Positions 3,737 through 28,700 are shown, numbered from the stretch's first letter. The stretch: DNA of 32,000 nt from Promethearchaeota archaeon (GCA_016933055.1 JAFGBS010000009.1:720001-752000); one strand, 5' to 3'. A program made the numbers and translations. Notes: generated by a model not told the origin, from the sequence alone.

Positions 3737-4324
3737 ATGGAATTGAGTAATAGTGATGAAAAAATAAAAGGAGCATTCCAGATAACTAATATCGTTTCAT
3801 CTGTATCCCTTAAAACTCATATAGACCTTGATCTCCTTGCAGAAAAATACCAAGAAGTCGAATATAATGTTAATAATTTCCCAGGTGTGAGAATTCGATT
3901 CTCCAAACCAAAATGTACTGCCTTGCTCTATGAAAATGGAGAGATGATCATAACTGGTATAAAAAAGACAGAATTTATTCCTGTTATAATTTCCAAAGTG
4001 ATAAACAACCTTAAGATCAACAATATTGTAGTTCCAGAGAAACCAAGTTGTAGAATCGTTAATATGGCTGTAAGTGGGCATCTTAAGAAGAGAATTGATC
4101 TGGATCTAGCCAGTGTAGTATTAGAACGTACTATTTATGAACCCGAAGTATTTCCTGGTTTAGTCCTACGCATAGATGATCCCCATAAATGCGTATTTCT
4201 TTGCTTTTCTAATGGGAAATTTGTGGTTACGGGTTTAATAAAAAAAGATCAAATCAAAGAATCCGTAATTAGCTTTGGAAATCTCATTAAAAATAACGAT
4301 CTATTTCTATTAGATGATGAGTAA
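3737..4324 (+). CDS. tbp: TATA-box-binding protein family, divergent copy
   Basis: Two TBP repeats: NIVSS...YNVNNFPG...TALLYENGEMIITG and NMAVSG...YEPEVFPG...FLCFSNGKFVVTG; short acidic tail. Confidence 0.93.
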   Translation: MELSNSDEKIKGAFQITNIVSSVSLKTHIDLDLLAEKYQEVEYNVNNFPGVRIRFSKPKCTALLYENGEMIITGIKKTEFIPVIISKVINNLKINNIVVPEKPSCRIVNMAVSGHLKKRIDLDLASVVLERTIYEPEVFPGLVLRIDDPHKCVFLCFSNGKFVVTGLIKKDQIKESVISFGNLIKNNDLFLLDDE

Positions 4325-4411
4325 TAATCGTTAAGTAGAGGTAATGTCATAAACAAATATATTCGGTTTCTCTTGACAGTTATTAACCTTAGAATTAATC
4401 TTATGATTACA

Positions 4412-5965
4412 ATGACATATAATGTGTTTATCCGAGGAATTTATTCTACTGCACTCACTAAATTGTTTTACGATTTAGGATACAATATTGTTTATTCAAG
4501 TCCTCCCATTAGAGAAAGATTCAACTTAGAAGAATTCTCTGAGAATTGGAAAAATAAATTTTCCAAACAAATAATTATCAATGATAGATACGATCGAGAG
4601 GGTATTTCGGTTACTACCAAGAAAGAAATTTGGCCAGATATCAAAGATACCTTTCCTCTTAACGGATCAGATTTCCCAAATTTATTGCAATATTATGCAA
4701 GATTTCCGATGAACTCAATCTATAAAGGTATCGTAATCTCTTGTAATAAAATAAAAAATTACTCGTTAGTTCGTTTGATTCCTGAGCAACAGAACAATGA
4801 TACGGAAGTGGAATCTCATTTCACTACTACAATAGGTCGAATTAACCGTTTTCTACCCGTAGGTAGTGAAGACATTTTTCAAATTTCTTATGAAGATGTT
4901 GGACAGTCCTATGCATATCTTAATCAAGGATACACTGTTTCGGGTGATCTTGCTGTTATTATGCCATATAATAAACGAGGATTAATCTCCAAAAAAATCA
5001 AAGATAAAACAGAACGCACACGACTAAAAAAAGTAATTGATGAGATTACTGCCAAAGATTTTGGGATCTTGATCCGAACTGTAGCTCAATACGCTGATGA
5101 ATTGGAAATTTTAAAACAAATTCAGCAATTGAGAGAAAAATATATAGAAATCGAGTCTTTAATCAATCAATCAGGATCTCAAATCGGAGAAATTTATTCC
5201 GATGCTGTATCCCTCAATTATCTGTTTCCTAATACTACAAAATATAAATTTGATCAAATTCGGGACTCAATTTTACCCACATTGCCTTTACATCATGAAA
5301 TAAAAGCTACCACAAATGTGGGAGACCGATCACATCTTAAGACTTTATTACTAATTGAAGAAATTTTGGAGGAGACAGGAGGAAATGGATTTACCGAAAG
5401 CATCCAAAACAAATTTCTATCCTATTATTCCTCTAATTTATATGTTCCCCGACAAATTTTGAATATTCATCACTATAAAATAAATGGACGAATTCTTCAT
5501 CTTCAATCCGGACAAATTAAAAAAATCGACAGGTTAAGAAATCCTAATCGCCTACAAGTTATTCTAAGAAGGCATGTGAAATCCCAAGGACTCTATGATG
5601 GTTTAGAAATCCCGATCGAGGAAGGAGATTATGCTATTGGGATCTATGAACAAGAAAGCTGGTTTTCCGAAACTTCCTATTATACGAAGGATAATGAACT
5701 AAAAGGAAAATATTTCAATATCAATACTCCTTTGGTATTTCGACCAGATGGAATCCATTATTTTGACCTTGAGATCGATGTGATTGAACCGTTAAATCGA
5801 AAACGAATTGTTATCGATGCGGAATTGCTTGAAAAAGCGGCAGAAAGAGGGATCATCTCTCCATATTTATACAGTAAAGCGTTAGAAACTGCAGAAGAAC
5901 TGAAAAATAATGAAAAAATTATAAATCGTACTCCTCACCAAGGTCTGAAAGAAGAAATTGGGTAA
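4412..5965 (+). CDS. fau-1: FAU-1 RNA-binding protein/endoribonuclease (RNase E/G-like N-terminus, DUF402 C-terminus)
   Basis: N-terminal VFIRGIYSTALT, RNase G-like GILIRTVA and DUF402-like YFNINTP...YFDLEIDV. Start refined to ATG 4412 (alternative 4403); the track uses TTG 4373. Confidence 0.88.
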   Translation: MTYNVFIRGIYSTALTKLFYDLGYNIVYSSPPIRERFNLEEFSENWKNKFSKQIIINDRYDREGISVTTKKEIWPDIKDTFPLNGSDFPNLLQYYARFPMNSIYKGIVISCNKIKNYSLVRLIPEQQNNDTEVESHFTTTIGRINRFLPVGSEDIFQISYEDVGQSYAYLNQGYTVSGDLAVIMPYNKRGLISKKIKDKTERTRLKKVIDEITAKDFGILIRTVAQYADELEILKQIQQLREKYIEIESLINQSGSQIGEIYSDAVSLNYLFPNTTKYKFDQIRDSILPTLPLHHEIKATTNVGDRSHLKTLLLIEEILEETGGNGFTESIQNKFLSYYSSNLYVPRQILNIHHYKINGRILHLQSGQIKKIDRLRNPNRLQVILRRHVKSQGLYDGLEIPIEEGDYAIGIYEQESWFSETSYYTKDNELKGKYFNINTPLVFRPDGIHYFDLEIDVIEPLNRKRIVIDAELLEKAAERGIISPYLYSKALETAEELKNNEKIINRTPHQGLKEEIG

Positions 5966-15556: not shown

Positions 15557-16594
15557 ATGACAATAAACAGAATTCCCTATTTTAACGCAGCGGGAGAGCC
15601 GTATGAAGTCGGTTTTCAGATAGGTGAGCACTTCAAACATAATATCCATAACATTTTTGAGGATTTGTGGGAGTATCAGGTTCATCAGAAAAGGTATCCT
15701 CAAAAAAAATCGTTTATACAACAGATGTTAAATTTATCCCAAAAATTGTGCCCAAAGATTGTTGAGGAAATTCAAGGGCTTGCAGATGGTTCTGGGAGTG
15801 AATTCATGGATCTATTCGTCCATAACTGCATGCATATGCCCTATTGGTCTAATTGCTCCACAAGTGTATTGAAGCAAGAAAATGCTATTTATATAGCACA
15901 TAATGAAGATGCACATCCGGTACTGGAGAAATATGCTTATTACGTGGTTATACAACCAAAAAATCTTGATTCAATCCCCTTTTTCTCCCATTGCTATCCC
16001 GGAATAGTAGCGGGGATGTCATTTGGATTTAATTTGTCAGGTTTAGTGCAAACATGCAATTCTCTTCCTGATCCTACAAGAAGTATTGGCATCCCCCGAA
16101 TATTCGTAGGGAGATCCACTTATGAAAAAGCCAAAACAATTTCAGATGTGTTGAATATCATTGATAAATTAAAACCACGATCTGGTGGAGCAAGTTATAC
16201 TATTGCATCTCTTTCTGAAATGAATGTGATAAACATAGAAACCACTGGAATAGATCATTGCATACTATCTTTTAAGAAACGATTTTTTCGAGCTAATCAC
16301 TATTTATCAGAGGTGTATAGGCATCATCCAGCGGCATCCCTCCACACATTAGCACGTCAAGAACGGGGTAATTCTATGATTAACTCAATCAGAACCGCTG
16401 ATCAATTATTAAAGATGATGTTGGATAAGTCCATTCGACTCACTATGAGCAGTACTCATAACGAATGTCAAACTAATTCAACCCTTTTGTTTGAGATTAC
16501 AGATAATGATGTTGTCCTTAAAAGATATTTAGGAAAAAACCAAAAAGAATTTGATTTAATTAACATGAGGTATCTGGACTCAAAGCAAGATTAA
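15557..16594 (+). CDS. Peptidase C45 family Ntn-hydrolase/acyltransferase (isopenicillin-N N-acyltransferase-like)
   Basis: GEPYEVGFQIG start, EEIQGLADG, autoprocessing NCSTS followed by AHNED, GFNLSG, RANHY. Confidence 0.9.
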   Translation: MTINRIPYFNAAGEPYEVGFQIGEHFKHNIHNIFEDLWEYQVHQKRYPQKKSFIQQMLNLSQKLCPKIVEEIQGLADGSGSEFMDLFVHNCMHMPYWSNCSTSVLKQENAIYIAHNEDAHPVLEKYAYYVVIQPKNLDSIPFFSHCYPGIVAGMSFGFNLSGLVQTCNSLPDPTRSIGIPRIFVGRSTYEKAKTISDVLNIIDKLKPRSGGASYTIASLSEMNVINIETTGIDHCILSFKKRFFRANHYLSEVYRHHPAASLHTLARQERGNSMINSIRTADQLLKMMLDKSIRLTMSSTHNECQTNSTLLFEITDNDVVLKRYLGKNQKEFDLINMRYLDSKQD

Positions 16595-17244
16595 GGTTTC
16601 ACCAATGATCTTAAAGATGTAAGCAGAAACTCTCTAAATTTTTTCAGTCCATCATTTTCTAATATTGATCCGACCGGCTCTAATATATTACTGTGCATTC
16701 TAAATTCATTCTCCATAGAAGTTGCTCCGTGTATCAATGAAAATATGACATATGATAAATATTCAGAGTCGTCTTTCTTTATTTCCCCAACTTTAATTCC
16801 TTCCTGAATCACTTTTTTAACTACATTAAATGGTTTAATTGGAATATAGTTTTTTTCGATTTCTCCCACTATTTTTGACTTTGGAGCGGGGATAAAAAAT
16901 AACATTTGAAAACTATGAAATTCTTTCTGTGCGTAATCCAAATAGAATAATGTGAGTTTTTCGAGAAGATCTATATAAGAACCTGTAAAATTGGAGTAAA
17001 TATCTTCTAATTTTTCTTTTACTCGTTCAAGATCGTATCGGCGGATAGCAATCCAAAGTTCACGTTTACTTGCTACGTAATTATACAAATTTCCATGAGT
17101 CATACCCAACTCTTTAGCAAGTGTACGCATGGAAAATCCAGATGAACCATGTCTAACAAATAATTTTCTTCCCGTCCTAATGATTTCTTCATATAATTTC
17201 TGTTTATCTTCAGCAGATCGTGCAATTTCTTTTTTCTTTCCCAT
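16591..17244 (-). CDS. TetR/AcrR-family transcriptional regulator (WHG-like C-terminal domain)
   Basis: IIRTGRKLFVRHGSSGFSMRTLAKELGMTHGNLYNYVASKREL helix-turn-helix; FQMLF and IFSLIHG. Start refined to ATG 17244 with SD-like GAGGGG upstream. Confidence 0.93.
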   Translation of the reverse strand: MGKKKEIARSAEDKQKLYEEIIRTGRKLFVRHGSSGFSMRTLAKELGMTHGNLYNYVASKRELWIAIRRYDLERVKEKLEDIYSNFTGSYIDLLEKLTLFYLDYAQKEFHSFQMLFFIPAPKSKIVGEIEKNYIPIKPFNVVKKVIQEGIKVGEIKKDDSEYLSYVIFSLIHGATSMENEFRMHSNILEPVGSILENDGLKKFREFLLTSLRSLVKP

Positions 17245-17308
17245 CAAATTACCCCTCATGAATAAATTTGTTACAATGATGTAGAGATTCAAATGTTTTA
17301 TTATCTTG

Positions 17309-18529
17309 TTATTTATGGATAGCATAAGCTAGTAAAAAGTGAAAACTTGTTCCATCTAAAATAGAATCAATATTTCCATACTCATTGGGAGTATCATGAT
17401 TACCCCCTTCATTTCCTGCGACCATTATTGATAAAATCCCCTTAAGAATACCTATATTCATATTAGTAGATCCCATGTCACTCAGAAATACTTCTTTTCC
17501 TAATTTTATTGTAATATATTCTGCAAATTTTACGAGTTGTGAATTCTTCGCATCCGAGATCTGAGCAGCTGGTAGATCCTTATAAATCTCAATTTGATAC
17601 TTGAAATCATACTTGTTTGCAATATTTTCACTGATATGGGTTATCTTTTCGAATAGTTTATTTAAAATCTCGTTGTCATAACTACGCAAATCGACAGATA
17701 ACCAACCCTTTTCGGGTTTATGATTAAAACTCTTACCTGATTTAACCATTCCGATATTAATATACGCTCCAGTCAATTGTATCTTTCCTATACCCAAATT
17801 GTGATAATTTTGATTATTTAAATTTTCTCTTGATGGTAATGGAATTTCAAAAATCTGAGTGATCGCTTCCGCAAGTGCTACATTCACATTTGGTAATCCT
17901 CCAGATAAAGTATGACCACTTGGACCATAAAAATGGACTTTGAGCATTTTTATACCTAAAGCTCCATAAAAAATTCTGCCAAATCCTCCCATAATATCTA
18001 TCACATAATCAATGTCATCATTTTCTTGTAGAAAAAATCTAATTCCTCCAAAATCTTGCTCTTCTTGTACCACTGCTACCAAATATATAGTACCGCTGAG
18101 TTCAGTTTTTTTAGCAAACAACAATTTCGCAAGTGCTATCAAAGTGACGCATGATCCCGTGATTAAAGTTCCAGGTCCGACGATTTTGTCGTTTTCAATA
18201 CGCACTGGAAATTTTTTAGAATTCACCCGATCAGCAATGGTAATGAGATCATCCATTGTACATAAAAATGCCGTAGTAGGTCCTTTTTTTTTTGTTTGAA
18301 GGATCCCTATAACATTTCCAACTTGATCGATATAAACGTGGGGAATGCCCATTTGTAATAATTTTTTCTTGATATATTCAGCTCGTTTGGATTCCCCTCC
18401 CGATGGGGAATAAATACTGGCAAGAGTCAACCAATTCTCAATCAGTTCCTTTTTATTTGAATAAAGAGATTCAAGAATACCGCAGGATTTTATTTCACGC
18501 AAGATTTCGTCAATTTGTTGTTGAATCAT
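17309..18529 (-). CDS. M20/M25/M40-family metallo-hydrolase homologue with degenerate metal ligands
   Basis: SPSGGESKRA, DQVGNVIG, VQEE, GPSGHT, NIGMV, VDLRS and GST fit the fold. Ligand motifs read LCTMD, PGTLIT and NHDTPNE. Confidence 0.85.
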   Translation of the reverse strand: MIQQQIDEILREIKSCGILESLYSNKKELIENWLTLASIYSPSGGESKRAEYIKKKLLQMGIPHVYIDQVGNVIGILQTKKKGPTTAFLCTMDDLITIADRVNSKKFPVRIENDKIVGPGTLITGSCVTLIALAKLLFAKKTELSGTIYLVAVVQEEQDFGGIRFFLQENDDIDYVIDIMGGFGRIFYGALGIKMLKVHFYGPSGHTLSGGLPNVNVALAEAITQIFEIPLPSRENLNNQNYHNLGIGKIQLTGAYINIGMVKSGKSFNHKPEKGWLSVDLRSYDNEILNKLFEKITHISENIANKYDFKYQIEIYKDLPAAQISDAKNSQLVKFAEYITIKLGKEVFLSDMGSTNMNIGILKGILSIMVAGNEGGNHDTPNEYGNIDSILDGTSFHFLLAYAIHK

Positions 18530-20330
18530 TTTGAATCATTGGGATGTCCACAAAGGAGGGATTATCTTTAGTATGATATATAGTATATATTGATGAGGAT
18601 TCCAAATCTTTTGGATAGATTGAGAAATTATCTTTATCTGCACCTGCAATTGCAATCCGTATTTGCATTCCTTTATCGATCCAAACGGAAATTGGCTCTA
18701 ATGCAAAACTGATATTATAGATTTTATCTGGAGTCAAATATTCCGCATCCTTCTGTTTGAAACTACGATAAGGTATTGGAGATTTATAAGGTGAGCTTTC
18801 TTGTGCGAGTTTCCAATGAATTAATCTCAACATTCCTTCACTGAGATAATAGACTTTATCATTGTGCACTAACTCGAAATATACAAATAATGAACCATCT
18901 TCATGAGTTGAACTTAGAGATAAATTTATTATCGGATGCCCTGTAACTTCTAGAGAATTAGTGATGGGTTCACTAGTAAACGTAAGTAACTTGGTATCTT
19001 CTTTCGAACGATTCTTATAAATTACTGGATTGTAAAATTGAGTTCGCCATCGATTTGTAGTTCCCGTTGTAGTAGAATAATTAACTTGATACGTGCTTAT
19101 TGCATCTGAATCTAGTGGGGGTTCAAATGATAACGTGTTATTAGGGTGAAAATAGAATTTTTTATATTCTTGATTGTCTGGTGGCCATTTTGAAGTCGAT
19201 TTCCACTTTTGTTGTCTGATAGTGAAATAATAAAGAACTTTTGGAATTCTGTCCGGGTCCTTCAAACATCTTTTTGCAAATCGAATTTTTTCCTGTAGCT
19301 GGACAAATTCTGAAGGGATTGAACGAGATTTGGATTTTTGAAATGGATTTCCATCTAAATACATCCCATGATTCCAGGATCCGATGATAGCAATATGAGG
19401 ATTCTCATAATTTAAGAAACGATGAATCACACCTGTTGCAGTCGTTGCATCGAACCAAGAACCGCAACTCATTATAGGGGTACCATTTTTAGAAATTTTA
19501 TTCGTATAGGTGTACACAGAGATATCATCGATTGTCCTCCCCGTCACTTTGTCGAAAATATCATCTCTATAATCAATCGATTTTGCTATCTCATAGACAT
19601 TGGGATTATGGGCATGTTGATGTATGAAATCATCTAATTTAGATGTGTTCTCACGTCCTTGAACTGGTTTTACTCCCTTAATGAGTATTTTCAAAAAAAA
19701 TGGATAGGGAAGATTTTTAATTTGATTTCGATCCAAATCGGAATTTGCGAGACCCCAATTTTTAACAAACCATTCCATAAAGACTCCACCAGGATATGCG
19801 ATATCAGTATACACATCATATTCATTCTCACAAACAATATGTCCCTTAATAGCGGGATGATAGACTGTTGCCGATAATTCAGAAGTCGTTGCAGAATAAG
19901 ATAATCCAAAAGTAATGATATCTCCATCTGACCATGGTTGTTGTGTAATCCATTCAGCAATTGAATTCATATCTTGAATTTCACATTGGGACCACGGAGA
20001 GGTACGAACTCCTGATGATGCTCCGCTTCCTCTGACATCTACGCGAACTAAGTTAAATCCCGCATCAATTAAGGGTTTGAATCTCTGAAGGTCTATTTTT
20101 TCAATCCATCGAAATCCTGTCCGGTATTGGGTTGCTCGCCAATATCGAGTTTGATGCAAGAAAGTAGGTCTTTTTTCAGTAAATCCCCTTTCTAATATGA
20201 TGTCTGCAGCAATTTCAGTGCCATCGGGCATAGTAATATAGTCAGAATTAATCGAAAATCGTTTTTTAGATCTATTTTTTTTATCTGTCGGAAGATCTTC
20301 AAAAATTCCAAATTTGTTTGGCATATTCAC
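18510..20330 (-). CDS. CocE/NonD-family serine hydrolase (S15/Xaa-Pro dipeptidyl-peptidase fold)
   Basis: MPDGTEIAADI, QTRY, VDVRGSGASSG and triad GLSYSA/GSWFD/GSWNHG, with a C-terminal jelly-roll region. GTG start has SD-like GGGGT. Confidence 0.93.
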   Translation of the reverse strand: MNMPNKFGIFEDLPTDKKNRSKKRFSINSDYITMPDGTEIAADIILERGFTEKRPTFLHQTRYWRATQYRTGFRWIEKIDLQRFKPLIDAGFNLVRVDVRGSGASSGVRTSPWSQCEIQDMNSIAEWITQQPWSDGDIITFGLSYSATTSELSATVYHPAIKGHIVCENEYDVYTDIAYPGGVFMEWFVKNWGLANSDLDRNQIKNLPYPFFLKILIKGVKPVQGRENTSKLDDFIHQHAHNPNVYEIAKSIDYRDDIFDKVTGRTIDDISVYTYTNKISKNGTPIMSCGSWFDATTATGVIHRFLNYENPHIAIIGSWNHGMYLDGNPFQKSKSRSIPSEFVQLQEKIRFAKRCLKDPDRIPKVLYYFTIRQQKWKSTSKWPPDNQEYKKFYFHPNNTLSFEPPLDSDAISTYQVNYSTTTGTTNRWRTQFYNPVIYKNRSKEDTKLLTFTSEPITNSLEVTGHPIINLSLSSTHEDGSLFVYFELVHNDKVYYLSEGMLRLIHWKLAQESSPYKSPIPYRSFKQKDAEYLTPDKIYNISFALEPISVWIDKGMQIRIAIAGADKDNFSIYPKDLESSSIYTIYHTKDNPSFVDIPMIQNDSTTN

Positions 20331-20360
20331 GATTTTTACCCCAATAAAATAATAAAGGAG

Positions 20361-21791
20361 TTATAATTTGAGTTCTGCTAGCTTGATTTGTATCTCCGTA
20401 ATTTTTGTTTTATTTAGTTCAAATCTTAGTATGAAGAAAATCCATACGATACCTAGTAATATGCCTGGTATAAATCCTAAATGTGCTCGAATCCCCCAAA
20501 TAGCTGAAATTGGTTGTAATGCAACCTCTGCCTCGGGAATAAAACCAGTGATCATATGCACTCCGAGAATTATAACGGTAACTAACGCGGTCCCGAGTAT
20601 AATAAAGAAATTAAAAATTCCCAGATATGTCGCGCGATCATTTTTCTTGTGAGCCAATGTCATCTCATCTAAAATAGCTCCTCTCACGGGATTGAATGTG
20701 ATTCCAAATAAGCTACTCGCTAATCCATTAACAAACATAAGGATCATTGACAATTCGATAGTTGTTGCAAAACCTAAAGAAAATAACGAAATTGCATAAA
20801 AAGCAATAGCGATCTTATAAGAAGTAACACTCCCTAGCTTCTTTGCCATCCAAATCCAAAAAGGCAATAAAGCTAGTACACCTAACACATATGGTACTGC
20901 GACGAGTATTTGTATTTCAAATCCACGAAATGTTATCCCAAGAAATGTATATTCACTTGGTACAAGATAATCTGACCAATAAGGAACGCTAGCAAACATC
21001 ATTGTATCCATCATTACTCCAATTACTTGTGCAAGCAAAAATACACGGAAATTTTTAAATTTAAATCCTTTTGCTGCTGTCCTAAAAAAGTCCCGTAAAT
21101 TTGGTCTTCCTTCTGATGAATTTAATGCAAATTCGATCATTTCCTTATCTTCTTTCAAACCAGGTATGGACAAACCTAAGCATGTGAGACTTAAAACTGC
21201 AGATATAGCAGTCATAATTAGATAATTGTTCAGATTATTGGAAGTTTGAGACGCATCTACAGTGAGGGAGGGTATGACAATTCCAAGTACAAATCCAATT
21301 TGTAGCATGATAGTTTTAATTCCCATGACTCTCGTTCGTTCTTTATCACTACGAAATTTCTCTAAAAGTAATGCATCATAATTCATTGTCCATATAGTGA
21401 GAAAACTATCAAAAATAACTAAAGACCCAAGATACCAAAGAGAGTTTCCCAAATTTCCCTGTGTGGGAGGGAAAAAAACCGCAATAAGGCAGATGTTAAG
21501 AGGAATAGCCGAACTAACTATCCATATAAACCGTTTTCCCCATTTCTTCCAAAATCTTTTGGGTTTGTCACTTATATACCCAAACAATGGATCATTTATT
21601 GCATTCCAAATTACATACACAACATTTACAATTATGAGGAAAATAGGTTCCACTAAAATGACTGTCTCATAAAAATGAAGTAGGTATGTGCGCAAGATAG
21701 AAGACATTAATCCGATTCCAAGAGTTGAAAACGTAAAGGAGAGGATGTTCCAAAATGAATGCCTTTTTGACAATATTTCTTCTTGTGTCAT
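20361..21791 (-). CDS. MFS transporter, GPH (Na+/melibiose-like) family
   Basis: WNAINDPLFGYISD...GKRFIW GPH signature and about 12 TM helices. Confidence 0.92.
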   Translation of the reverse strand: MTQEEILSKRHSFWNILSFTFSTLGIGLMSSILRTYLLHFYETVILVEPIFLIIVNVVYVIWNAINDPLFGYISDKPKRFWKKWGKRFIWIVSSAIPLNICLIAVFFPPTQGNLGNSLWYLGSLVIFDSFLTIWTMNYDALLLEKFRSDKERTRVMGIKTIMLQIGFVLGIVIPSLTVDASQTSNNLNNYLIMTAISAVLSLTCLGLSIPGLKEDKEMIEFALNSSEGRPNLRDFFRTAAKGFKFKNFRVFLLAQVIGVMMDTMMFASVPYWSDYLVPSEYTFLGITFRGFEIQILVAVPYVLGVLALLPFWIWMAKKLGSVTSYKIAIAFYAISLFSLGFATTIELSMILMFVNGLASSLFGITFNPVRGAILDEMTLAHKKNDRATYLGIFNFFIILGTALVTVIILGVHMITGFIPEAEVALQPISAIWGIRAHLGFIPGILLGIVWIFFILRFELNKTKITEIQIKLAELKL

Positions 21792-21801
21792 TTTTTTTTT
21801 T

Positions 21802-21820
21802 CACTGACCTATGGTTAGTG
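21802..21820. promoter_or_regulatory. Operator copy 1: CACTGACC-TAT-GGTTAGTG, upstream of the MFS-CocE-M20-TetR operon
   Basis: 19-bp palindrome with one mismatch, 10 nt from the ATG. Minus-strand TATA TTTTAAAT at 21829-21836. Confidence 0.8.
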
Positions 21821-21906
21821 TATTATTTATTTAAAATTATTGTTCATTAAGTTCCGATCATATACAATATTCAACTATTTCTTTCTGGGAAAATGAAAAA
21901 AAGTAG

Positions 21907-22665
21907 TTAATTAAATGATGTCCACCGTTTTTTCAAGCGTTCTCCTGGAACATATCCAATTGATATATTGATAGCAGCAATTATACCTAAAACCCACCCC
22001 AGAGTAACAAAAACAAAATTATAGATCAACTCATGCAACACGAACAACAATGTAGTTCCAGATAGTAAAATACCGGTTAATGCGATGAATAATAATCCTT
22101 TATGGATAATCATTTCCTCATTGGATTTTGATTGCATTTTACTTCTGATTCGAAATGCACTAATAGTTAATGAACCATAAATCGTTAAAGAACATAAAAT
22201 TAGAAGCACGAAAGGAGCATATTCGATCAATTCTGTAATAATTATAATTCCTGTAAAATCGAGATACCACACTACCCAAATTATCGGAATAACAAGGATC
22301 TCTAAAATAACGAAAATCCAATAAAAAAAGTTATTAATTTGTTCATCGAATACCGTTCGAGTGAATGCAAACAATAATACATTACTTACAGCCAAGCAAG
22401 TGAAAGACATATTCGAAAAAAAGAAGGTTTGAGCAAAAGTAGGTATCCATAAATTCGCTAAATGATAGGAAGATTCAAAAAATGCTGCTAAAGTAAGGAA
22501 TAGGATCGAAAAAGTCATATATGATAATGCTTTTGAACGATTCCTGTTCAATTTGGCACTCATTAATCCAAAAATAATAAAACCGATAATTGTGGATATT
22601 GCTGCACCTATAAAAGCGACCCAAGGATTTTTGAACACTAAATCCAGCCATGGAGTTTGTTCCAT
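21907..22665 (-). CDS. Hypothetical 7-TM membrane protein
   Basis: Seven hydrophobic segments of about 20-25 aa by inspection, no soluble output domain, short basic C-tail (ERLKKRW). Confidence 0.85.
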   Translation of the reverse strand: MEQTPWLDLVFKNPWVAFIGAAISTIIGFIIFGLMSAKLNRNRSKALSYMTFSILFLTLAAFFESSYHLANLWIPTFAQTFFFSNMSFTCLAVSNVLLFAFTRTVFDEQINNFFYWIFVILEILVIPIIWVVWYLDFTGIIIITELIEYAPFVLLILCSLTIYGSLTISAFRIRSKMQSKSNEEMIIHKGLLFIALTGILLSGTTLLFVLHELIYNFVFVTLGWVLGIIAAINISIGYVPGERLKKRWTSFN

Positions 22666-22672
22666 TTTTCTT

Positions 22673-22691
22673 CACTGAACAATGGTTAATG
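22673..22691. promoter_or_regulatory. Operator copy 2: CACTGAAC-AAT-GGTTAATG, upstream of the 7-TM gene
   Basis: Same 19-bp motif, 7 nt from the ATG. TATA TTTATAAA at 22713-22720. Confidence 0.72.
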
Positions 22692-22823
22692 CTTTCAAAA
22701 TCAGTCTAAACCTTTATAAATATATTGATCACGTTATGGTAGAATTCCTTCAAACTTGTCTTAAAACCAATTTAGACGAGTAATTAGAGCGTTGTAGTAA
22801 GTTTTTTATAAAACATGATCGAA

Positions 22824-22842
22824 TAATAACCATCGGTTAGTA
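22824..22842. promoter_or_regulatory. Operator copy 3: TAATAACC-ATC-GGTTAGTA, upstream of the crotonase-CoA ligase operon
   Basis: 19-bp palindrome with one mismatch. TATA TTTATAAA at 22805-22812. A weaker copy TAAAGACC-CGA-GGTTAAAA follows at 22841-22859. Confidence 0.8.
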
Positions 22843-22860
22843 AAGACCCGAGGTTAAAAA

Positions 22861-23655
22861 ATGGACTCAAAAGTATTGTATAATCAAGAAGGAAGAATTG
22901 GTATAATTACACTCAATAATCCGGAGAAGGGAAACCCGATTGACATGGAAACTATGCGTGGGTTGATCGATGCCTATAAAACCAGCGCTAAAAATAATGA
23001 TCGAATAGTTCTGTACATGGCAAAAGGTAAGCATTTTACTGTGGGAGATAACCTCAAGGAGGGATTTGAAATAATGACTAATCCTGGTCTCCGATCTGAG
23101 GGTATTGAAACGGTATTAAACTGGCAAGAGTTAACAAGTACGATGTTAGCACATCCTGGAATAATAATTGTTGGGTATCATGGTTGGGTGATTGGAGGGG
23201 GATATGAACATACTCTTTGGTGTGATTTCAAAATTGCAGCAAAATCCACTACATTTATGCTCCCTGAACTAAGTATGGGAATTTTTTTCTCCAATGCTAG
23301 CACAAAATTACTTCCCCATTTAGTTGGATTGAATAAGGCTAAGGAAATTATGATGCTGGGAGATATGTTTGGGGCTTCGGAAGCTAAAGAATTAGGTTTG
23401 GTTCATCAAGTGTGTGCTGATGAGAAACTAGAGAAAAGAATGCGGAGATTGGCTCAGAAACTATTAGAAAAAGACGAATTAGCCCTTAAAAGAGCGAAGG
23501 AAATGCTTCTTTATGCTTTAGATTCTCCTCTAGATGAAGTGTTGTATAAAGAAACAAGAATAATGATAGAAACCGCTCAATCTCCGGAAGCAAAAAAACG
23601 TGTTGGAGAGTTTGTTAAAAAGAGTAAAAAAGAAGGGGAAAAAAAGGAGGAATGA
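22861..23655 (+). CDS. Enoyl-CoA hydratase/isomerase (crotonase) family
   Basis: ITLNNPEKGN, IGGGYE...CD and MLPE with both Glu positions present, KEIMMLG. ATGA overlap with the next gene. Confidence 0.93.
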   Translation: MDSKVLYNQEGRIGIITLNNPEKGNPIDMETMRGLIDAYKTSAKNNDRIVLYMAKGKHFTVGDNLKEGFEIMTNPGLRSEGIETVLNWQELTSTMLAHPGIIIVGYHGWVIGGGYEHTLWCDFKIAAKSTTFMLPELSMGIFFSNASTKLLPHLVGLNKAKEIMMLGDMFGASEAKELGLVHQVCADEKLEKRMRRLAQKLLEKDELALKRAKEMLLYALDSPLDEVLYKETRIMIETAQSPEAKKRVGEFVKKSKKEGEKKEE

Positions 23656-25268
23656 ACATGGGTTTACCAAAAAGAGAACTTTTTCATGAATATATCGATT
23701 ATTGGGCGGAAGTTGATTCTAATTTTCCTTCAATTAAGTATAGTGGAAAGGGGATACTCACTGCTGGTGAATTAAAAGAACTTTCGTTAAAAGCAGCGAC
23801 GGGATTTTATGAGATGGGAGTTCGAAAAGGAGATACGATTGTAACTGTGTTAACCACCATTCCTGAATTCATAATAACATGGATTGCTGCGAGTCGTATA
23901 GGTGCTATCGTAGTTCCCATGGATGTTAATTACAAGCGAACGGACTTCTTGAACATGATTCCTCATTCTCAGCCAAAGGTTGTTGTTTCATTGAAAAAAT
24001 TCCATAAGAATAAGATCGCAAGTACCTTATTCGAAATAAAAGAACATCTGGGAAATGTTATCTACATAGTTAAGGGGGATCATAAATTAGGAATTTCTTG
24101 GTCAGAATTTATTGAAAAAGATTATTCGTCAGAAAAGATTTTTCCTCTTCAAGGACATATCGATGAAAATGACACAATTCTCATAGTTTGGACAGGGGGC
24201 TCAACTGGATCTCCAAAAGCAGTTTGTTTATCCCATAAAAATGTCGTATCAATGATTCTTCATGAAGTGCGCAAAGTATGCGACTTTCTTGGTAAAAAAC
24301 CTGGTGCAGACAGATTTGTTTGGTTAGCAAATTTGCCTGTTAGTCATGTTGGTGGTTCAGTAGAAATGCTGGGAACGGGTTTAATTGGAGGTTTGAAACT
24401 TAGATTGCAGAAAGAATGGTCGCCTTGGCCTGCTCTCCAAGTAATGCAAAATGAAAAGACATTGTTTGCGGGAGGAGTTCCTACTATGTTTTCTATTTGG
24501 ACCGCTCTTCCCGATCTTTTGGAATATAACTTAAAATCTACACTAAAGGTCGCGTTTATGTCTGGAGATAAAGTTTCTCTTCATCTTTTAAATAAAATTT
24601 CAGAAAAAATGTGTGAAACTATTATTGTTGGTTATGGGAGCACAGAGGCTGGAGCAGAGGTTTCTTTTTCAGAACCGGGAGATTCTTATGAAGATCTAGC
24701 AAATGGGTATGTTGGAAAACCATTACCTGGAGTCGATATAATAGTTGTGGATGAAAATGGTAGTGTTCTTCCTCCTAATCAAGATGGAGAGATTTTGGTT
24801 AAAGGAGATATCACAAGTCAGAATTATTTTAATATGCCCGAAGAAACGAAACGTGGATTTTCAGAAGATGGATATTGTAAAACAGGAGATTTAGGACACT
24901 TGGATGGGAATGGTGGATTATGGATTACGGGTCGGATCAAATTCATCATACGGGTAGGCTCCTATACTGTTTTACCATCCGAGATCGAAGATATTGTGAA
25001 TAAACAAAAAAATGTTCTGGTTTCTGCAGCATTTGGTGTACCTGATGAGAAATATGGCGAAGTTGTGTGGCTGGTAATCGGTCCCGAACCTGGTACAACT
25101 GTTAACGAAACCGAAATCATGGAGCGACTTACCGAAGAGTTAGCGAATTACAAATTACCGCGAAAAATATTAAATTATGAAGTGGATGCAGCGAATATGC
25201 CTTTCACAAGTATTGGAAAAGTGGATCGACCGCGAATACAACAAGAACTGAATATTCCCAAAAAATAA
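23652..25268 (+). CDS. Acyl-CoA synthetase (AMP-forming, class I adenylate-forming enzyme)
   Basis: WTGGSTGSPK P-loop, LPVSH, GYGSTE, KTGDLG, GRIK, TSIGKV. Confidence 0.92.
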   Translation: MNMGLPKRELFHEYIDYWAEVDSNFPSIKYSGKGILTAGELKELSLKAATGFYEMGVRKGDTIVTVLTTIPEFIITWIAASRIGAIVVPMDVNYKRTDFLNMIPHSQPKVVVSLKKFHKNKIASTLFEIKEHLGNVIYIVKGDHKLGISWSEFIEKDYSSEKIFPLQGHIDENDTILIVWTGGSTGSPKAVCLSHKNVVSMILHEVRKVCDFLGKKPGADRFVWLANLPVSHVGGSVEMLGTGLIGGLKLRLQKEWSPWPALQVMQNEKTLFAGGVPTMFSIWTALPDLLEYNLKSTLKVAFMSGDKVSLHLLNKISEKMCETIIVGYGSTEAGAEVSFSEPGDSYEDLANGYVGKPLPGVDIIVVDENGSVLPPNQDGEILVKGDITSQNYFNMPEETKRGFSEDGYCKTGDLGHLDGNGGLWITGRIKFIIRVGSYTVLPSEIEDIVNKQKNVLVSAAFGVPDEKYGEVVWLVIGPEPGTTVNETEIMERLTEELANYKLPRKILNYEVDAANMPFTSIGKVDRPRIQQELNIPKK

Positions 25269-25304
25269 TTGATCTATTATATTTTGAAAAAATTGGTGAA
25301 AAAA

Positions 25305-26762
25305 ATGAAAATTATGAATAAAATAAAAGAAATTGAGGATAAAGAGCTTAAACGTGGATTAAGCTTACCAATGACTATATTTATAATTGTAGGATTAGTG
25401 ATTGGCTCCTCTATCTGGCTAAATCCCGCTGCAAAATTGAACGAAGCAGGTCCTTCCGTTTGGCTTGCTTATCTGTTAGCAGTTATTCCCTCAATTTTTG
25501 TTGCTTATGTGACCGCATATATTGGCTCTGCTTTACCCGTTTCGGGCGGTACTTATGTAGTGATCAGTCGTTCAGTGAATCCGTTTATTGGATTTATGAG
25601 CTTATGGGCTGTTATTCTTGCAGTATCTACGACATTAGCCACCATGGCTGCTACTTTTGGCACTTTTTTGAATGATATTATTGGTATCAGCAATTCCACA
25701 ATGCAAATATTATTCGTTATTGGCGTTGGCGTAGCGATTCTGGCAATTTTTTATTTGTTAAACCTTCTTCACGTAAGTATTTCGGGAGTAGTTGAGATAG
25801 TTATCACACTTCTGGGAGATCTACTTGTGATGATGATATTTATTTTCGCTGCGTTTAAAAATATTAAAGCCGAGAACTTAACTCCCATGTTTCCCAATGG
25901 ATTCAGTCCCGTATTAGTTGCAACACTTGTTTTCACTTTTTCGTATGCGGGTTTTTCCGCAGTAATTGATGTAGCAGGTGAAGTAAAGAATCCCAAAAAA
26001 AATATTCCAAGAGCATTAGCTATTTCTATTCCGATTTTAGTTGTCTTATATACAATTCAAGCATTTGTTGTGGCAGGAATTCAAGACTATGCAGTTCCGG
26101 TGGGAACCGTCACTGAAATTATCCTTAATTTGGGAATTCTACCTGAGTGGCTGGTGGATATAATGGTAATACTGATTGCTATAGCAATTGCATCGACGAT
26201 TCATCCCGTATTTTTGGCATATTCAAGAGACATACTTATTGGTGGTAGGGATAAAATTCTTCCAAACATATTTGCGAAAGTAAATGAAAAACGCCGTATT
26301 CCAGGTCCAGCTTTGACTTTAATTCTAATTCTTAGTGTTGTTATTTTAGTCGTTTACCTCTCCATTCTTGGCCCTGTAATTGGAATTGCACTTACCGATG
26401 CAATTTTGGTATTGAGCTCTGTTTCTGCCGTAAGTGTATTATTCGCCCAAGTTTTTGTATGTGTCGCAGCACTTAAATTTCCCAAGAAATTTCCCGAATT
26501 ACATGAATCTGCTGGATTCAAACCTAAGATAAATGTATTAAAAATTATGGCTTGGTTAGGATTGATAACGTCTGTTTTATTTTTGCTTATAGTGTTCGTA
26601 GATTTCACGATAGCTTTGTATGTCGCACTTTCATTTGTGCCTTTTATGATAATCGGAATAATATATTATTTAATTCGAAAAGCGACACTTAAAAAACAAG
26701 GAGTGAATATTTCTGAGACATTATCAGTGTGGCCAAAAGAAATTACCATTTCTAAGTCTTAA
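25305..26762 (+). CDS. APC-family amino acid/polyamine permease
   Basis: LVIGSSIW, PVSGGTYV, FSYAGF, AGEVKNPKKNIPRA and about 12 TM helices. Start refined to ATG 25305 with SD GGTGA. Confidence 0.93.
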   Translation: MKIMNKIKEIEDKELKRGLSLPMTIFIIVGLVIGSSIWLNPAAKLNEAGPSVWLAYLLAVIPSIFVAYVTAYIGSALPVSGGTYVVISRSVNPFIGFMSLWAVILAVSTTLATMAATFGTFLNDIIGISNSTMQILFVIGVGVAILAIFYLLNLLHVSISGVVEIVITLLGDLLVMMIFIFAAFKNIKAENLTPMFPNGFSPVLVATLVFTFSYAGFSAVIDVAGEVKNPKKNIPRALAISIPILVVLYTIQAFVVAGIQDYAVPVGTVTEIILNLGILPEWLVDIMVILIAIAIASTIHPVFLAYSRDILIGGRDKILPNIFAKVNEKRRIPGPALTLILILSVVILVVYLSILGPVIGIALTDAILVLSSVSAVSVLFAQVFVCVAALKFPKKFPELHESAGFKPKINVLKIMAWLGLITSVLFLLIVFVDFTIALYVALSFVPFMIIGIIYYLIRKATLKKQGVNISETLSVWPKEITISKS

Positions 26763-26801
26763 ATCAAAAATTAAATAATTAGTGAGAACAAGTGATGTAT
26801 T

Positions 26802-27803
26802 ATGATGGCAAATAATACTCTACTCCTCACTAAATCCGATTTGGAATCACTTATTACCATTCAAGATATGATTTCTACGATTGAAGATGCATTCCGAAAA
26901 CACGGAGAGGGTAAATCTTTCGGCATGGATATGATACATGGGGTTACTCCTTCTGAGCTAGAATTCCACATTAAGGTTGGTGGAATTACACTTGGTGATA
27001 AAAAATACTATGGATTGAAAATTAACGCTAGTAATTTCTCGAACATGGATAAACATGGATTACCCAATATCATTGGTGCTATTCTCCTATTTGATGGTAC
27101 TACTGGATTTCCGTTAGCTATTGTAGATTCAATTATACCTACCATATTACGCACGGGGGCGGGTACGGCAGTAGCTATGAAATATCTTGCTCGTCCTGAT
27201 TCTAAAATTGCAACTATTTGCGGTTGTGGGACTCAAGGACGAATTCAATTACGTTCCATAAAAACCGTTCTTCCTCTTGAGAGAGTTTTTGCTTTTGACA
27301 TGGACTATAAAAGGGCTGAGATATATGCAAATGAAATGACAGACGAATTAGGTATGCAAATCGAATCAGTTAAAAATCTTGAAGAAGCGACAGTCAAATC
27401 AGATGTTATAATAACTTGCACGCCTTCTAAATCTCCATTCTTAAGGAAGGAATATGTTAACTATGGAACAACTATAGGAGCAATAGGAGCAGACAGTCCG
27501 GATAAGCAAGAATTAGAGACAAAATTACTTAAAGGAAATAAAGTTGTAGTAGATATACTTAAGCAATGTGCGGTTGCGGGGGAACTTCATCATGCTCTGG
27601 AAGAAAAATTGATCACAATAACCGATGTGCATGCAGAACTTGGTGAAATATTGACCGGTAAAAAAACAGGCAGAGAGAAACGGGACGAGATCATAATTTA
27701 TGACGCTACTGGAACGGCTATTCAAGACACTGCTTCGGTGGCAGTTTGTTATGAAAAAGCAGTTTCAAAGAATATTGGAACCTATATTGCTCTAAACCAC
27801 TAA
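26802..27803 (+). CDS. Ornithine cyclodeaminase/mu-crystallin family (archaeal alanine dehydrogenase or imine reductase type)
   Basis: FHIKVG, RTGAGTAVA, GCGTQG Rossmann motif, GADSPDKQE, YDATGTAIQD. Confidence 0.93.
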   Translation: MMANNTLLLTKSDLESLITIQDMISTIEDAFRKHGEGKSFGMDMIHGVTPSELEFHIKVGGITLGDKKYYGLKINASNFSNMDKHGLPNIIGAILLFDGTTGFPLAIVDSIIPTILRTGAGTAVAMKYLARPDSKIATICGCGTQGRIQLRSIKTVLPLERVFAFDMDYKRAEIYANEMTDELGMQIESVKNLEEATVKSDVIITCTPSKSPFLRKEYVNYGTTIGAIGADSPDKQELETKLLKGNKVVVDILKQCAVAGELHHALEEKLITITDVHAELGEILTGKKTGREKRDEIIIYDATGTAIQDTASVAVCYEKAVSKNIGTYIALNH

Positions 27804-27839
27804 ATCTGTCATCAAAAATAACATATTGGAAATCATACT

Positions 27840-28700
27840 ATGTCGCTATTTGCAGCAGATTTTTCTCAATCCTATGAAAAGAATGGATTAAGCCAAGAAA
27901 TGATTCAGATTTTTCAGCAAATTATCTGGGATTATTACAATTCTCATCCCCGGGAATTTCCTTGGAGGGTGACAAGAAATCCTTATCATATATTTATCTC
28001 TGAATGGATGCTTCAGCAAACGCAGACCTCTTCAGTCGTACCAAAATATAAGGAATTTATATCTAAACTACCCACATTCTCAGATTTAGCAAACACATCA
28101 ATGGATGAGGTAGTTAAACTCTGGCAAGGATTAGGGTATAATCGTCGAGCAATATGGATGAAATCTGCTGCAGAATCAATTGTAAGGGAGTATAACGGAA
28201 CTCTTCCAAAAGATCCGGATCATCTTGAAAAAATTAAAGGCATTGGACATGCAACGGCTCGAGAAATGGTTACATTTGCATATAATATCCCAACAGTATT
28301 TATTGAAACGAATATTCGAAGAGTATTTTTGCATTTATTCTTTCACAACAAGAATCAAGTAAAAGACACGGAAATATTGTCATTGGTTGGGCAGACGGTG
28401 GATATAACTAATCCACGAGAATGGTATTATGCGTTGATGGATTATGGAGTAATGTTGAAAAAAACACTACAGCCTGATCCAAATCGCAGGAGTTATCATT
28501 ACAAAAAACAACCGAAATTTGAAGGCTCTAATCGAGAATTGCGTGGTAAAATTTTACGTTTGAAGATCACAAATCCCGAAATTACGAATATCACCATTTC
28601 TCAAAAACTAAAATCTCCCCTCGAAAAAATAAATGAACTAGTTACAAAAATGGAAGAAGAAGGATTTTTTGAGAAATCTCTTAAAACAACTAGTGAATAA
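27840..28700 (+). CDS. mutY: A/G-specific adenine DNA glycosylase, MutY-like, short form without Fe-S cluster
   Basis: FPWR, SEWMLQQTQ, WQGLGYNRRA, HhH KGIGHATA, ETNIRR and ALMDYG. No Cys-cluster motif. Confidence 0.9.
   Translation: MSLFAADFSQSYEKNGLSQEMIQIFQQIIWDYYNSHPREFPWRVTRNPYHIFISEWMLQQTQTSSVVPKYKEFISKLPTFSDLANTSMDEVVKLWQGLGYNRRAIWMKSAAESIVREYNGTLPKDPDHLEKIKGIGHATAREMVTFAYNIPTVFIETNIRRVFLHLFFHNKNQVKDTEILSLVGQTVDITNPREWYYALMDYGVMLKKTLQPDPNRRSYHYKKQPKFEGSNRELRGKILRLKITNPEITNITISQKLKSPLEKINELVTKMEEEGFFEKSLKTTSE

Follow-up and report, generated by a model that had tools for sequence, protein, structure and literature searches.

We describe a recurrent palindrome and its predicted regulator, a TetR-family protein, in a 32,000-nucleotide stretch of DNA from a Promethearchaeota archaeon (GCA_016933055.1 JAFGBS010000009.1:720001-752000, here G000:C17:720001-752000), the whole of which we refer to as the window. 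The source assembly comprises 3.76 Mb in 36 contigs at 35% GC. The archaeal small-subunit ribosomal RNA of this genome (RF01959, 1461 bits), the TATA-binding protein (TBP) encoded in the window and the annotation of homologues of the window TetR as Promethearchaeota/Lokiarchaeota metagenome-assembled genomes (MAGs) together identify the organism as a Lokiarchaeial member of the Asgard archaea. The assembly derives from a sediment metagenome. The genes and promoter features at the locus, with the operators as read from the sequence, are as follows:

16591..17244, minus strand: operon A gene 4, TetR-family regulator of 217 aa (PF00440)
17309..18529, minus strand: operon A gene 3, M20-family amidohydrolase-like protein, with a 20-nt overlap with gene 2
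18510..20330, minus strand: operon A gene 2, CocE/NonD (S15) family hydrolase (TIGR00976, 266.7 bits, cut-off 66.3)
20361..21791, minus strand: operon A gene 1, MFS_2 / GPH-family transporter (PF13347, E 6e-50)
21802..21820, minus strand: operator O1, CACTGACC-TAT-GGTTAGTG (in the direction of transcription CACTAACC-ATA-GGTCAGTG)
21829..21836, minus strand: TATA-like box of operon A, TTTTAAAT, 8 bp upstream of O1, its role as TATA box assigned from the archaeal consensus
21907..22665, minus strand: unit B, 252-aa multi-pass membrane protein
22673..22691, minus strand: operator O2, CACTGAAC-AAT-GGTTAATG (in the direction of transcription CATTAACC-ATT-GTTCAGTG)
22713..22720, minus strand: TATA box of the membrane-protein gene, TTTATAAA, 21 bp upstream of O2
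22805..22812, plus strand: TATA box of operon C, TTTATAAA, 11 bp upstream of O3
22824..22842, plus strand: operator O3, TAATAACC-ATC-GGTTAGTA, palindromic at 7/8 arm positions
22841..22859, plus strand: doubtful auxiliary site, TAAAGACC-CGA-GGTTAAAA, matching in its inner core alone and offset by 17 bp from O3
22861..23655, plus strand: operon C gene 1, crotonase / enoyl-CoA hydratase (ECH) family
23652..25268, plus strand: operon C gene 2, AMP-forming acyl-CoA ligase
25269..26762, plus strand: operon C gene 3, APC-family amino-acid permease
26802..27803, plus strand: operon C probable gene 4, ornithine cyclodeaminase / mu-crystallin (OCD) family enzyme, after a 39-nt gap, its membership judged from spacing alone

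The original prediction had placed three palindromes at 21802-21820, 22673-22691 and 22824-22842, and on reading back the sequence these coordinates proved exact, with the oriented 18-mer TAACCATNGKTYAGTRAA common to all three sites in the direction of transcription. The predicted spacing of 8-21 bp between TATA box and operator agrees with the gaps of 8, 21 and 11 bp at O1, O2 and O3. The inverted repeat has an 8+3+8 bp layout with half-site centres 10-11 bp apart. O1 is the best palindrome (7/8 arm positions) and lies 10 nt upstream of the MFS_2 ATG, while the ATG of the 252-aa membrane protein follows O2 after 7 nt and that of the ECH gene follows O3 after 18 nt.

Within the window TAACCATNGKTYAGTRAA matches at ≤2 mismatches only at these three sites, against 0.05 matches expected from 100 shuffles of the window, and the only exact matches in the 3.76-Mb genome are the same number, three, all within 1.05 kb. 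A genome search with a consensus built from O1-O3 only, with one mismatch permitted, identified a fourth site, O4, with the sequence TAATCATCGTTCAGTGAA on the minus strand at C17:212141-212158 (operator span G000:C17:212141-212161), on the same contig as the window sites and ~530 kb from them. Its layout is like that of O1-O3, with the TATA sequence TTTATAAT, 18 nt, the motif, 7 nt and an ATG. One such one-mismatch match is expected ~0.5 times per genome from a base-composition calculation on sequence alone; its promoter placement, orientation and operon content make a chance origin of O4 unlikely. The operon that follows O4 contains:

G000:C17:210157-212133 (L141:7158-9134), minus strand: 658-aa fusion protein whose N-terminal domain resembles neutral/alkaline ceramidases, with a PIG-L deacetylase domain
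L141:5631-7034, minus strand: second MFS_2 transporter, after the ceramidase-like/PIG-L gene, 26% identical to the MFS_2 transporter of the O1 operon

In G001, the only other genome of the same genus (76% complete), the site is kept as TACTAATCAATGTTCAGTGAA before the orthologous 664-aa gene (L054 2821-2841, 23.5 bits, 4 nt ahead of its ATG). Transcribed divergently from the O4 operon is a gene (G000:C17:212247-213269, plus strand; L141:9248-10270) that matches Fe-ADH_2 (PF13685), a family that includes archaeal glycerol-1-phosphate dehydrogenase.

The motif search across the genome that had been proposed thus upheld the significance of the motif and turned up one further member. To be independent of any consensus, the O1 18-mer alone was used as a query at ≤3 mismatches genome-wide and compared with permuted queries, giving five other genome matches against a background mean of 3.3, three of the five being O2, O3 and O4. 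With a position weight matrix (PWM) built from the four sites, O1-O4 score 28-31 bits (O1, the genome's top match, 31.4; O2 29.8; O3 27.9) and the next genome match 18 bits. A purely palindromic PWM ranks O1, O2 and O3 first, second and third among 3.76 million positions. PWM and consensus scans agree that the motif occurs at no other promoter of the window, as the original prediction had it. The signal is carried by the full 17-19 bp and the short core alone is insufficient: TAACC-N3-GGTTA at ≤2 mismatches is not enriched, with 12 matches observed and 12.2 expected.

The genome's other PWM matches, at 14-18 bits, were not accepted as sites; those inspected sit within long open reading frames (ORFs) save two. 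One is the intergenic TACTAATCAGTGTTCATTGAG at G000:C17:507353-507373 (14.6 bits oriented, 17.5 bits palindromic), with the start of a 271-aa ORF 255 nt downstream, which may be either a weak additional site or a coincidence; the other, C17:812552, lies just upstream of an ORF. The weaker tandem copy claimed at 22841-22859 is present as sequence and unconvincing as an operator. At 8.7 bits with the palindromic PWM it ranks 225th in the genome, and part of it coincides with the Shine-Dalgarno-like GAGGT that precedes the ECH ATG by 6 nt; we regard it as a weak candidate on both counts. Taken as RNA, positions 22827-22856 could pair the UAACC of O3 with the GGUUA of the auxiliary site overlapping the Shine-Dalgarno-like GAGGU (-9.2 kcal/mol, z -2.9), a pairing relevant only if transcription begins upstream of the operator.

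The regulon under O1-O4 would comprise about 11 genes in three operons and unit B. These encode two MFS_2 transporters, an APC permease, three amide/ester hydrolase-type proteins (CocE/NonD, M20-like and ceramidase-like+PIG-L), an acyl-CoA ligase, a crotonase, an OCD-family enzyme and an orphan membrane protein, besides the TetR regulator. The regulon is functionally coherent in that the O4 operon, too, encodes an MFS_2 transporter and an amide hydrolase-type protein, and from its sequence families the gene set resembles a pathway that takes up and degrades an acylated amine or amino-acid conjugate. NCBIfam searches of the regulon enzymes gave family-level matches only, none above an equivalog cut-off. 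The 252-aa membrane protein matched no Pfam or NCBIfam family; it was considered as a counterpart of the DUF998 protein found at the same position in relatives and rejected, as no similarity to that protein was detectable.

In archaea the 8-bp TATA box lies at -30 to -23, centred near -26. The distances from TATA octamer to operator are 8, 21, 11 and 15 bp for O1-O4, and with this canonical spacing each operator copy would span or abut the transcription start (+1). The predicted spans are -14/+5, -1/+18, -11/+8 and -7/+12, with the TATA boxes and +1 themselves assigned by prediction, and all four operators lie between TATA box and ATG, 7-18 nt upstream of the start codon. The original prediction had taken this arrangement for a bacterial-type repressor acting on archaeal promoters; that description appears right, and such regulators are normal in archaea.

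The conservation of the sites is oriented with transcription (TAACCAT...AGTRAA), which could point to a function as RNA (a 5' untranslated region hairpin or a translation element) or to an initiator-type core-promoter element in place of an operator, and O1 and O3 are indeed foldable as RNA (-5.7 and -9.2 kcal/mol, z ~-2.9). O2 and O4 form no hairpin (-1.9 and -1.0 kcal/mol, z ~0), and the hairpin reading was rejected on this ground. Differences between sites are not compensatory, the halves drifting toward the sequence consensus and not toward pairing, and at three of the four sites the predicted +1 lies inside the palindrome, so that the transcript would lack part of the hairpin. The spacing from TATA box to 18-mer varies between 10 and 24 nt, a poor fit to a fixed core-promoter element, and in relatives (see below) the DNA palindromes are perfect and their distance from the ATG varies. 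Altogether we consider a role of this kind highly improbable.

The most economical account of the palindrome, CACTRAYC-N3-GRTTAGTG in its general form, is that it serves as operator of the TetR protein encoded at 16591-17244, which from these genomic patterns is very probably a repressor at the four promoters. A TetR dimer would occupy the 19-bp operator with one helix-turn-helix per half-site, the half-site centres being 10 bp apart, and would prevent RNA polymerase from being recruited to, or initiating at, any of the four promoters. A small-molecule inducer would release it, candidates being the imported substrate or the acyl-CoA product of the ligase encoded in the operon.

The product of 16591-17244 is, by sequence and predicted fold, a full-length member of the TetR family. 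It matches PF00440 at 36.4 bits (cut-off 24) over profile positions 1-46 of 47, and other TetR proteins in a sequence search of the PDB; its identity to solved bacterial TetR proteins is <20%. The AF2 model (pLDDT 86.2) has ten helices, and Foldseek aligned it with probability 1.00 to >300 TetR chains over ~200/217 residues, including 5d1r (TMq 0.73), the Rv0078-DNA complex 6c31 (TMq 0.69) and B. subtilis FadR 3whc. The start was set at 17244, as alignments with homologues begin at residue 28 of the long ORF, and a Shine-Dalgarno-like GAGGGGT stands 7 nt upstream of it. The intergenic gaps of operon A are 30, -20 and 64 nt, and between the M20-like gene and the TetR gene there is no run of ≥5 T; from the tight gaps, the Shine-Dalgarno-like sequence and the lack of a T-run, the TetR gene is probably transcribed from the O1 promoter. 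As the last gene of the operon headed by O1 it would regulate itself, and the result would be negative autoregulation.

Archaeal activator sites normally lie upstream of the TFB recognition element (BRE)/TATA, TFB being transcription factor B. All four sites here are downstream of the TATA box over the expected +1, unlike such activator sites, and an operon that holds its own regulator gene is typical of negative autoregulation. We therefore think it quite improbable that the TetR protein binds but activates, acts dually, or represses after TBP/TFB recruitment and not by occluding RNA polymerase. The precedents for such behaviour are FadR(Sa) of Sulfolobus acidocaldarius, which from a site shortly after the start of its own transcript promotes the binding of TBP/TFB and represses a later step (PMC6449355), and the TetR proteins that activate, for example FasR.

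For comparison, loci were picked in other Lokiarchaeial MAGs by TetR homology alone, with homologues 46-64% identical to the window protein. Orthologous neighbours recur at these loci (ECH 45-69%, ligase 42-53%, permease 52-57% and S15 45% identity), and related palindromes lie in the promoter regions between those genes, some of them perfect 8+3+8 repeats at variable distance from the ATG:

L074, TetR 48%: CACTAATCAATGATTAGTG between DUF998 and TetR, its 17-bp core ACTAATCAATGATTAGT again upstream of ECH
L071, TetR 48%: ACTAATCAATGATTAGT 21 nt before the permease ATG, and GTAATCATTGATTAT before DUF998
L073, TetR 47%: copies in tandem pairs, offset by 14-18 bp, at both promoters
L113 (L072 with the same pattern), TetR 49%: CAATAATCAATGATTATTG
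L109, TetR 54%: AGTAATC-AAT-GGTTACT overlapping ACTGACC-AAT-GGTAAA in the ECH/TetR divergent region
L070, TetR 64%: TATTACC-ACT-GGTAATA in the ECH/TetR divergent region

An operator beside the regulator's own unit and at co-regulated promoters is thus found likewise in five other lineages. ACTAAYC-N3-GRTTAGT at ≤1 mismatch has five matches in the ~40 kb of TetR-picked loci, where ~0.013 are expected. Across 121 genomes of the order the same pattern, again at ≤1 mismatch, occurs about once per genome, not above a reversed control, and relative to this background the loci are enriched ~400-fold. Order-wide scans with the oriented 18-mer, and with the 17-bp palindrome at ≤1 mismatch, returned matches no commoner than reversed controls; such scans cannot define the regulon in relatives, and only inspection by context worked. 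Tandem and partly overlapping operator copies, offset by 14-18 bp, were seen in L073 (8300-8330, 8107-8141) and L109 (238-268); by analogy with QacR or FadR(Sa), this suggests that each promoter may be bound by two dimers. In L115 (G133:C44), upstream of a TetR homologue of 45% identity, the unit ACTGGTCAGTGTTC occurs as a twofold tandem direct repeat. This unit includes the O1 half-site GGTCAGTG, here as direct repeats of 14-bp period and not as an 8+3+8 palindrome.

The core of the palindrome differs between these lineages and so does the recognition helix. The residue preceding the conserved Gly of that helix is His in the window TetR, L070 and L109, where the operator cores are mostly ACC...GGT, and Gln in L071, L072, L073, L074 and L113, where they are uniformly ATC...GAT; the corresponding helix motifs are THG/SHV-NLYNY with ACC cores and S/T/V-QG-NLYNY with ATC cores. 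By motif register the position equals Tyr47 of FadR(Sa), which contacts bases specifically beside the essential Gly48 (PMC6449355). It is suggestive that the His/Gln residue tracks the ACC/ATC operator core. One may go further and propose that TetR, operators and targets form a self-contained module, patchy in Lokiarchaeia, in which the His/Gln exchange retunes specificity between ACC and ATC; we offer this tentatively, as possible but short of probable. The module is present in the genome that contains the window and in a second family of the same order, and was not found in 13 other searched genomes of the window's own family.

The proposal that the TetR at 16591-17244 is the binder gains from its operon position, the homologue loci, the covariation of recognition helix and core, and the placement of the operators. 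This TetR is the only clear DNA-binding regulator within ~15 kb, the sole other candidate in the window being a sub-threshold TrmB-like match at 3-674. An alternative is that the operator is real and is bound by another protein, namely a paralogue at C16:13804-14439 (45% identity) or C17:14386-14916 (30%) or an unrelated factor, with the local TetR controlling something else. The clade is expanded in Lokiarchaeia (76/161 genomes of the class match at E≤1e-30, with up to eight copies, in G117), and gene proximity alone never proves a binder. The paralogue C16:13804-14439 however stands in a different conserved context, with an S15 paralogue and SNF2/SWIM genes, and the window motif was not found in its upstream region. 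Across MAGs, moreover, no regulator other than the clade of the window TetR accompanies the ECH/ligase/permease genes and the palindromes, and the recognition helix of this clade covaries with the operator core. We accordingly judge a different binder unlikely.

Several observations weigh against the TetR at 16591-17244 as repressor at O1-O4, or against parts of that proposal. Arm symmetry is 7/8, 5/8, 7/8 and 4/8 for O1-O4, so that O2 and O4 are poor palindromes. All four sites are oriented alike with respect to transcription, with an invariant CAT after the upstream half-site and a trailing AA, a pattern which a symmetric dimer does not account for; the downstream half is better conserved than the upstream half across the four sites. 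The PWM in which O1-O4 stand out was trained on the very sites that it scored. In the closest homologue, L070 (64%), the palindrome shares only the ACC-N3-GGT core, and the His/Gln covariation is counted over about three lineages against about four. G001 keeps O4, yet no TetR orthologue was found in that assembly, which is 76% complete; this also speaks for another binder. TetR paralogues are numerous in the class and the 45%-identical one in the same genome, C16:13804-14439, makes cross-binding possible. Finally, the case for binding and repression is built from genomics throughout.

The closest homologue of the window TetR in a search of 5.8 billion proteins is 64% identical and lies on a 4.2-kb contig, and a metagenome scan found none closer than 54%. 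Within the window's family the clade was not found at E≤1e-30 in 11/13 other genomes, and in the other family genomes searched both the TetR orthologue and the ECH orthologue went undetected. The paralogue C16:13804-14439 (G000, L066; also in G001:C64, L110) is divergent from a paralogous S15/CocE hydrolase of 579 aa and is followed by a 1100-aa SNF2-family helicase and a SWIM-domain protein. The locus at 16500-28700 is also present in a 2017 hot-springs metagenome, with 23/24 pieces ≥99% identical; the strain there is identical at the locus and gives no data on variation. A 2021 sediment metagenome, which probably yielded the assembly, contains the same locus. No RNA run with the locus was found, and two metatranscriptome runs of the source study contained nothing matching it. 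Elsewhere the window encodes:

3-674: weak TrmB-like winged helix-turn-helix protein, cut by the window edge
1854-2774: MtrH-like methyltransferase
3737-4324: TBP
4373-5965: RNase E/G-like protein with a DUF402 domain

Asgard archaea are the closest prokaryotic relatives of eukaryotes, and gene regulation in them is almost wholly uncharacterised. The locus offers a compact regulator-operator pair with four sites, ~11 genes and natural variants of operator and recognition helix in related MAGs, testable with recombinant protein and without culturing the organism. Such tests could show which substrate is imported and degraded by these sediment archaea and could seed an inducible expression tool. 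If the module with its His/Gln retuning holds true, it would be a first regulator-operator code that can be read in Asgard archaea, and would supply a ligand-responsive switch, ready to use, for organisms without genetic tools. The concept itself is unsurprising, as archaea routinely run bacterial-type regulators on TBP/TFB promoters and FadR(Sa) has been dissected in detail; what we report belongs to a kind of system already known, and as a regulon predicted in silico it is unusually clean, in a lineage with unexplored regulation. Full-text literature searches returned no description of a TetR regulon in Lokiarchaeia.

The classical archaeal repressors that act over the transcription start and block RNA polymerase recruitment are MDR1, LrpA, Phr and TrmB/TrmBL1. 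The operators described here resemble theirs in lying downstream of the TATA box and overlapping a (here predicted) +1, whereas these repressors belong to other families (DtxR, Lrp/AsnC, winged helix-turn-helix and TrmB) and none comes from an Asgard archaeon. With bacterial TetR, QacR and AcrR the window protein shares an N-terminal helix-turn-helix (PF00440), an all-helical ligand/dimerisation domain, a 15-19 bp palindromic operator and a regulator gene beside transporter and enzyme targets. It differs from them in its predicted action on TBP/TFB/TATA-dependent archaeal promoters and not on sigma-70 promoters, and in being encoded last in its target operon and not divergently, although the divergent arrangement occurs in L070, L109 and L074. 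The overlapping tandem sites at 14-bp offset in L073 and L109 call to mind the dimer-of-dimers sites of QacR type (PMC6449355).

The closest precedent is FadR(Sa) (Saci_1107), an archaeal TetR protein with a 16-bp dyad motif, four strong sites and an acyl-CoA inducer (PMC6449355). Both are archaeal TetR-family regulators with a semi-palindromic operator of similar size and four strong genomic sites, FadR(Sa) controls a local catabolic cluster with acyl-CoA-metabolising enzymes as the window TetR would, and the autoregulatory site of FadR(Sa) lies just downstream of its transcription start. FadR(Sa) contacts bases from helix alpha3 and its essential Gly is conserved in the window TetR (THG-NLYNY). 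The predicted regulon includes an acyl-CoA ligase and a crotonase, and B. subtilis FadR is among the weak sequence and fold matches of the window TetR; among the PDB sequence matches of the window TetR at E≤0.01 no Sulfolobus chain was recognisable by name. In contrast to the four sites here, all between TATA box and ATG, three of the four FadR(Sa) sites are >130 bp from promoters. The operator sequences differ, as do the phyla (Thermoproteota versus Asgard/Lokiarchaeia) and the targets, beta-oxidation and lipases for FadR(Sa) versus transporters, amide hydrolases, a ligase and a crotonase here. The window TetR is not classed as a FadR, and FadR(Sa) is its closest precedent only.

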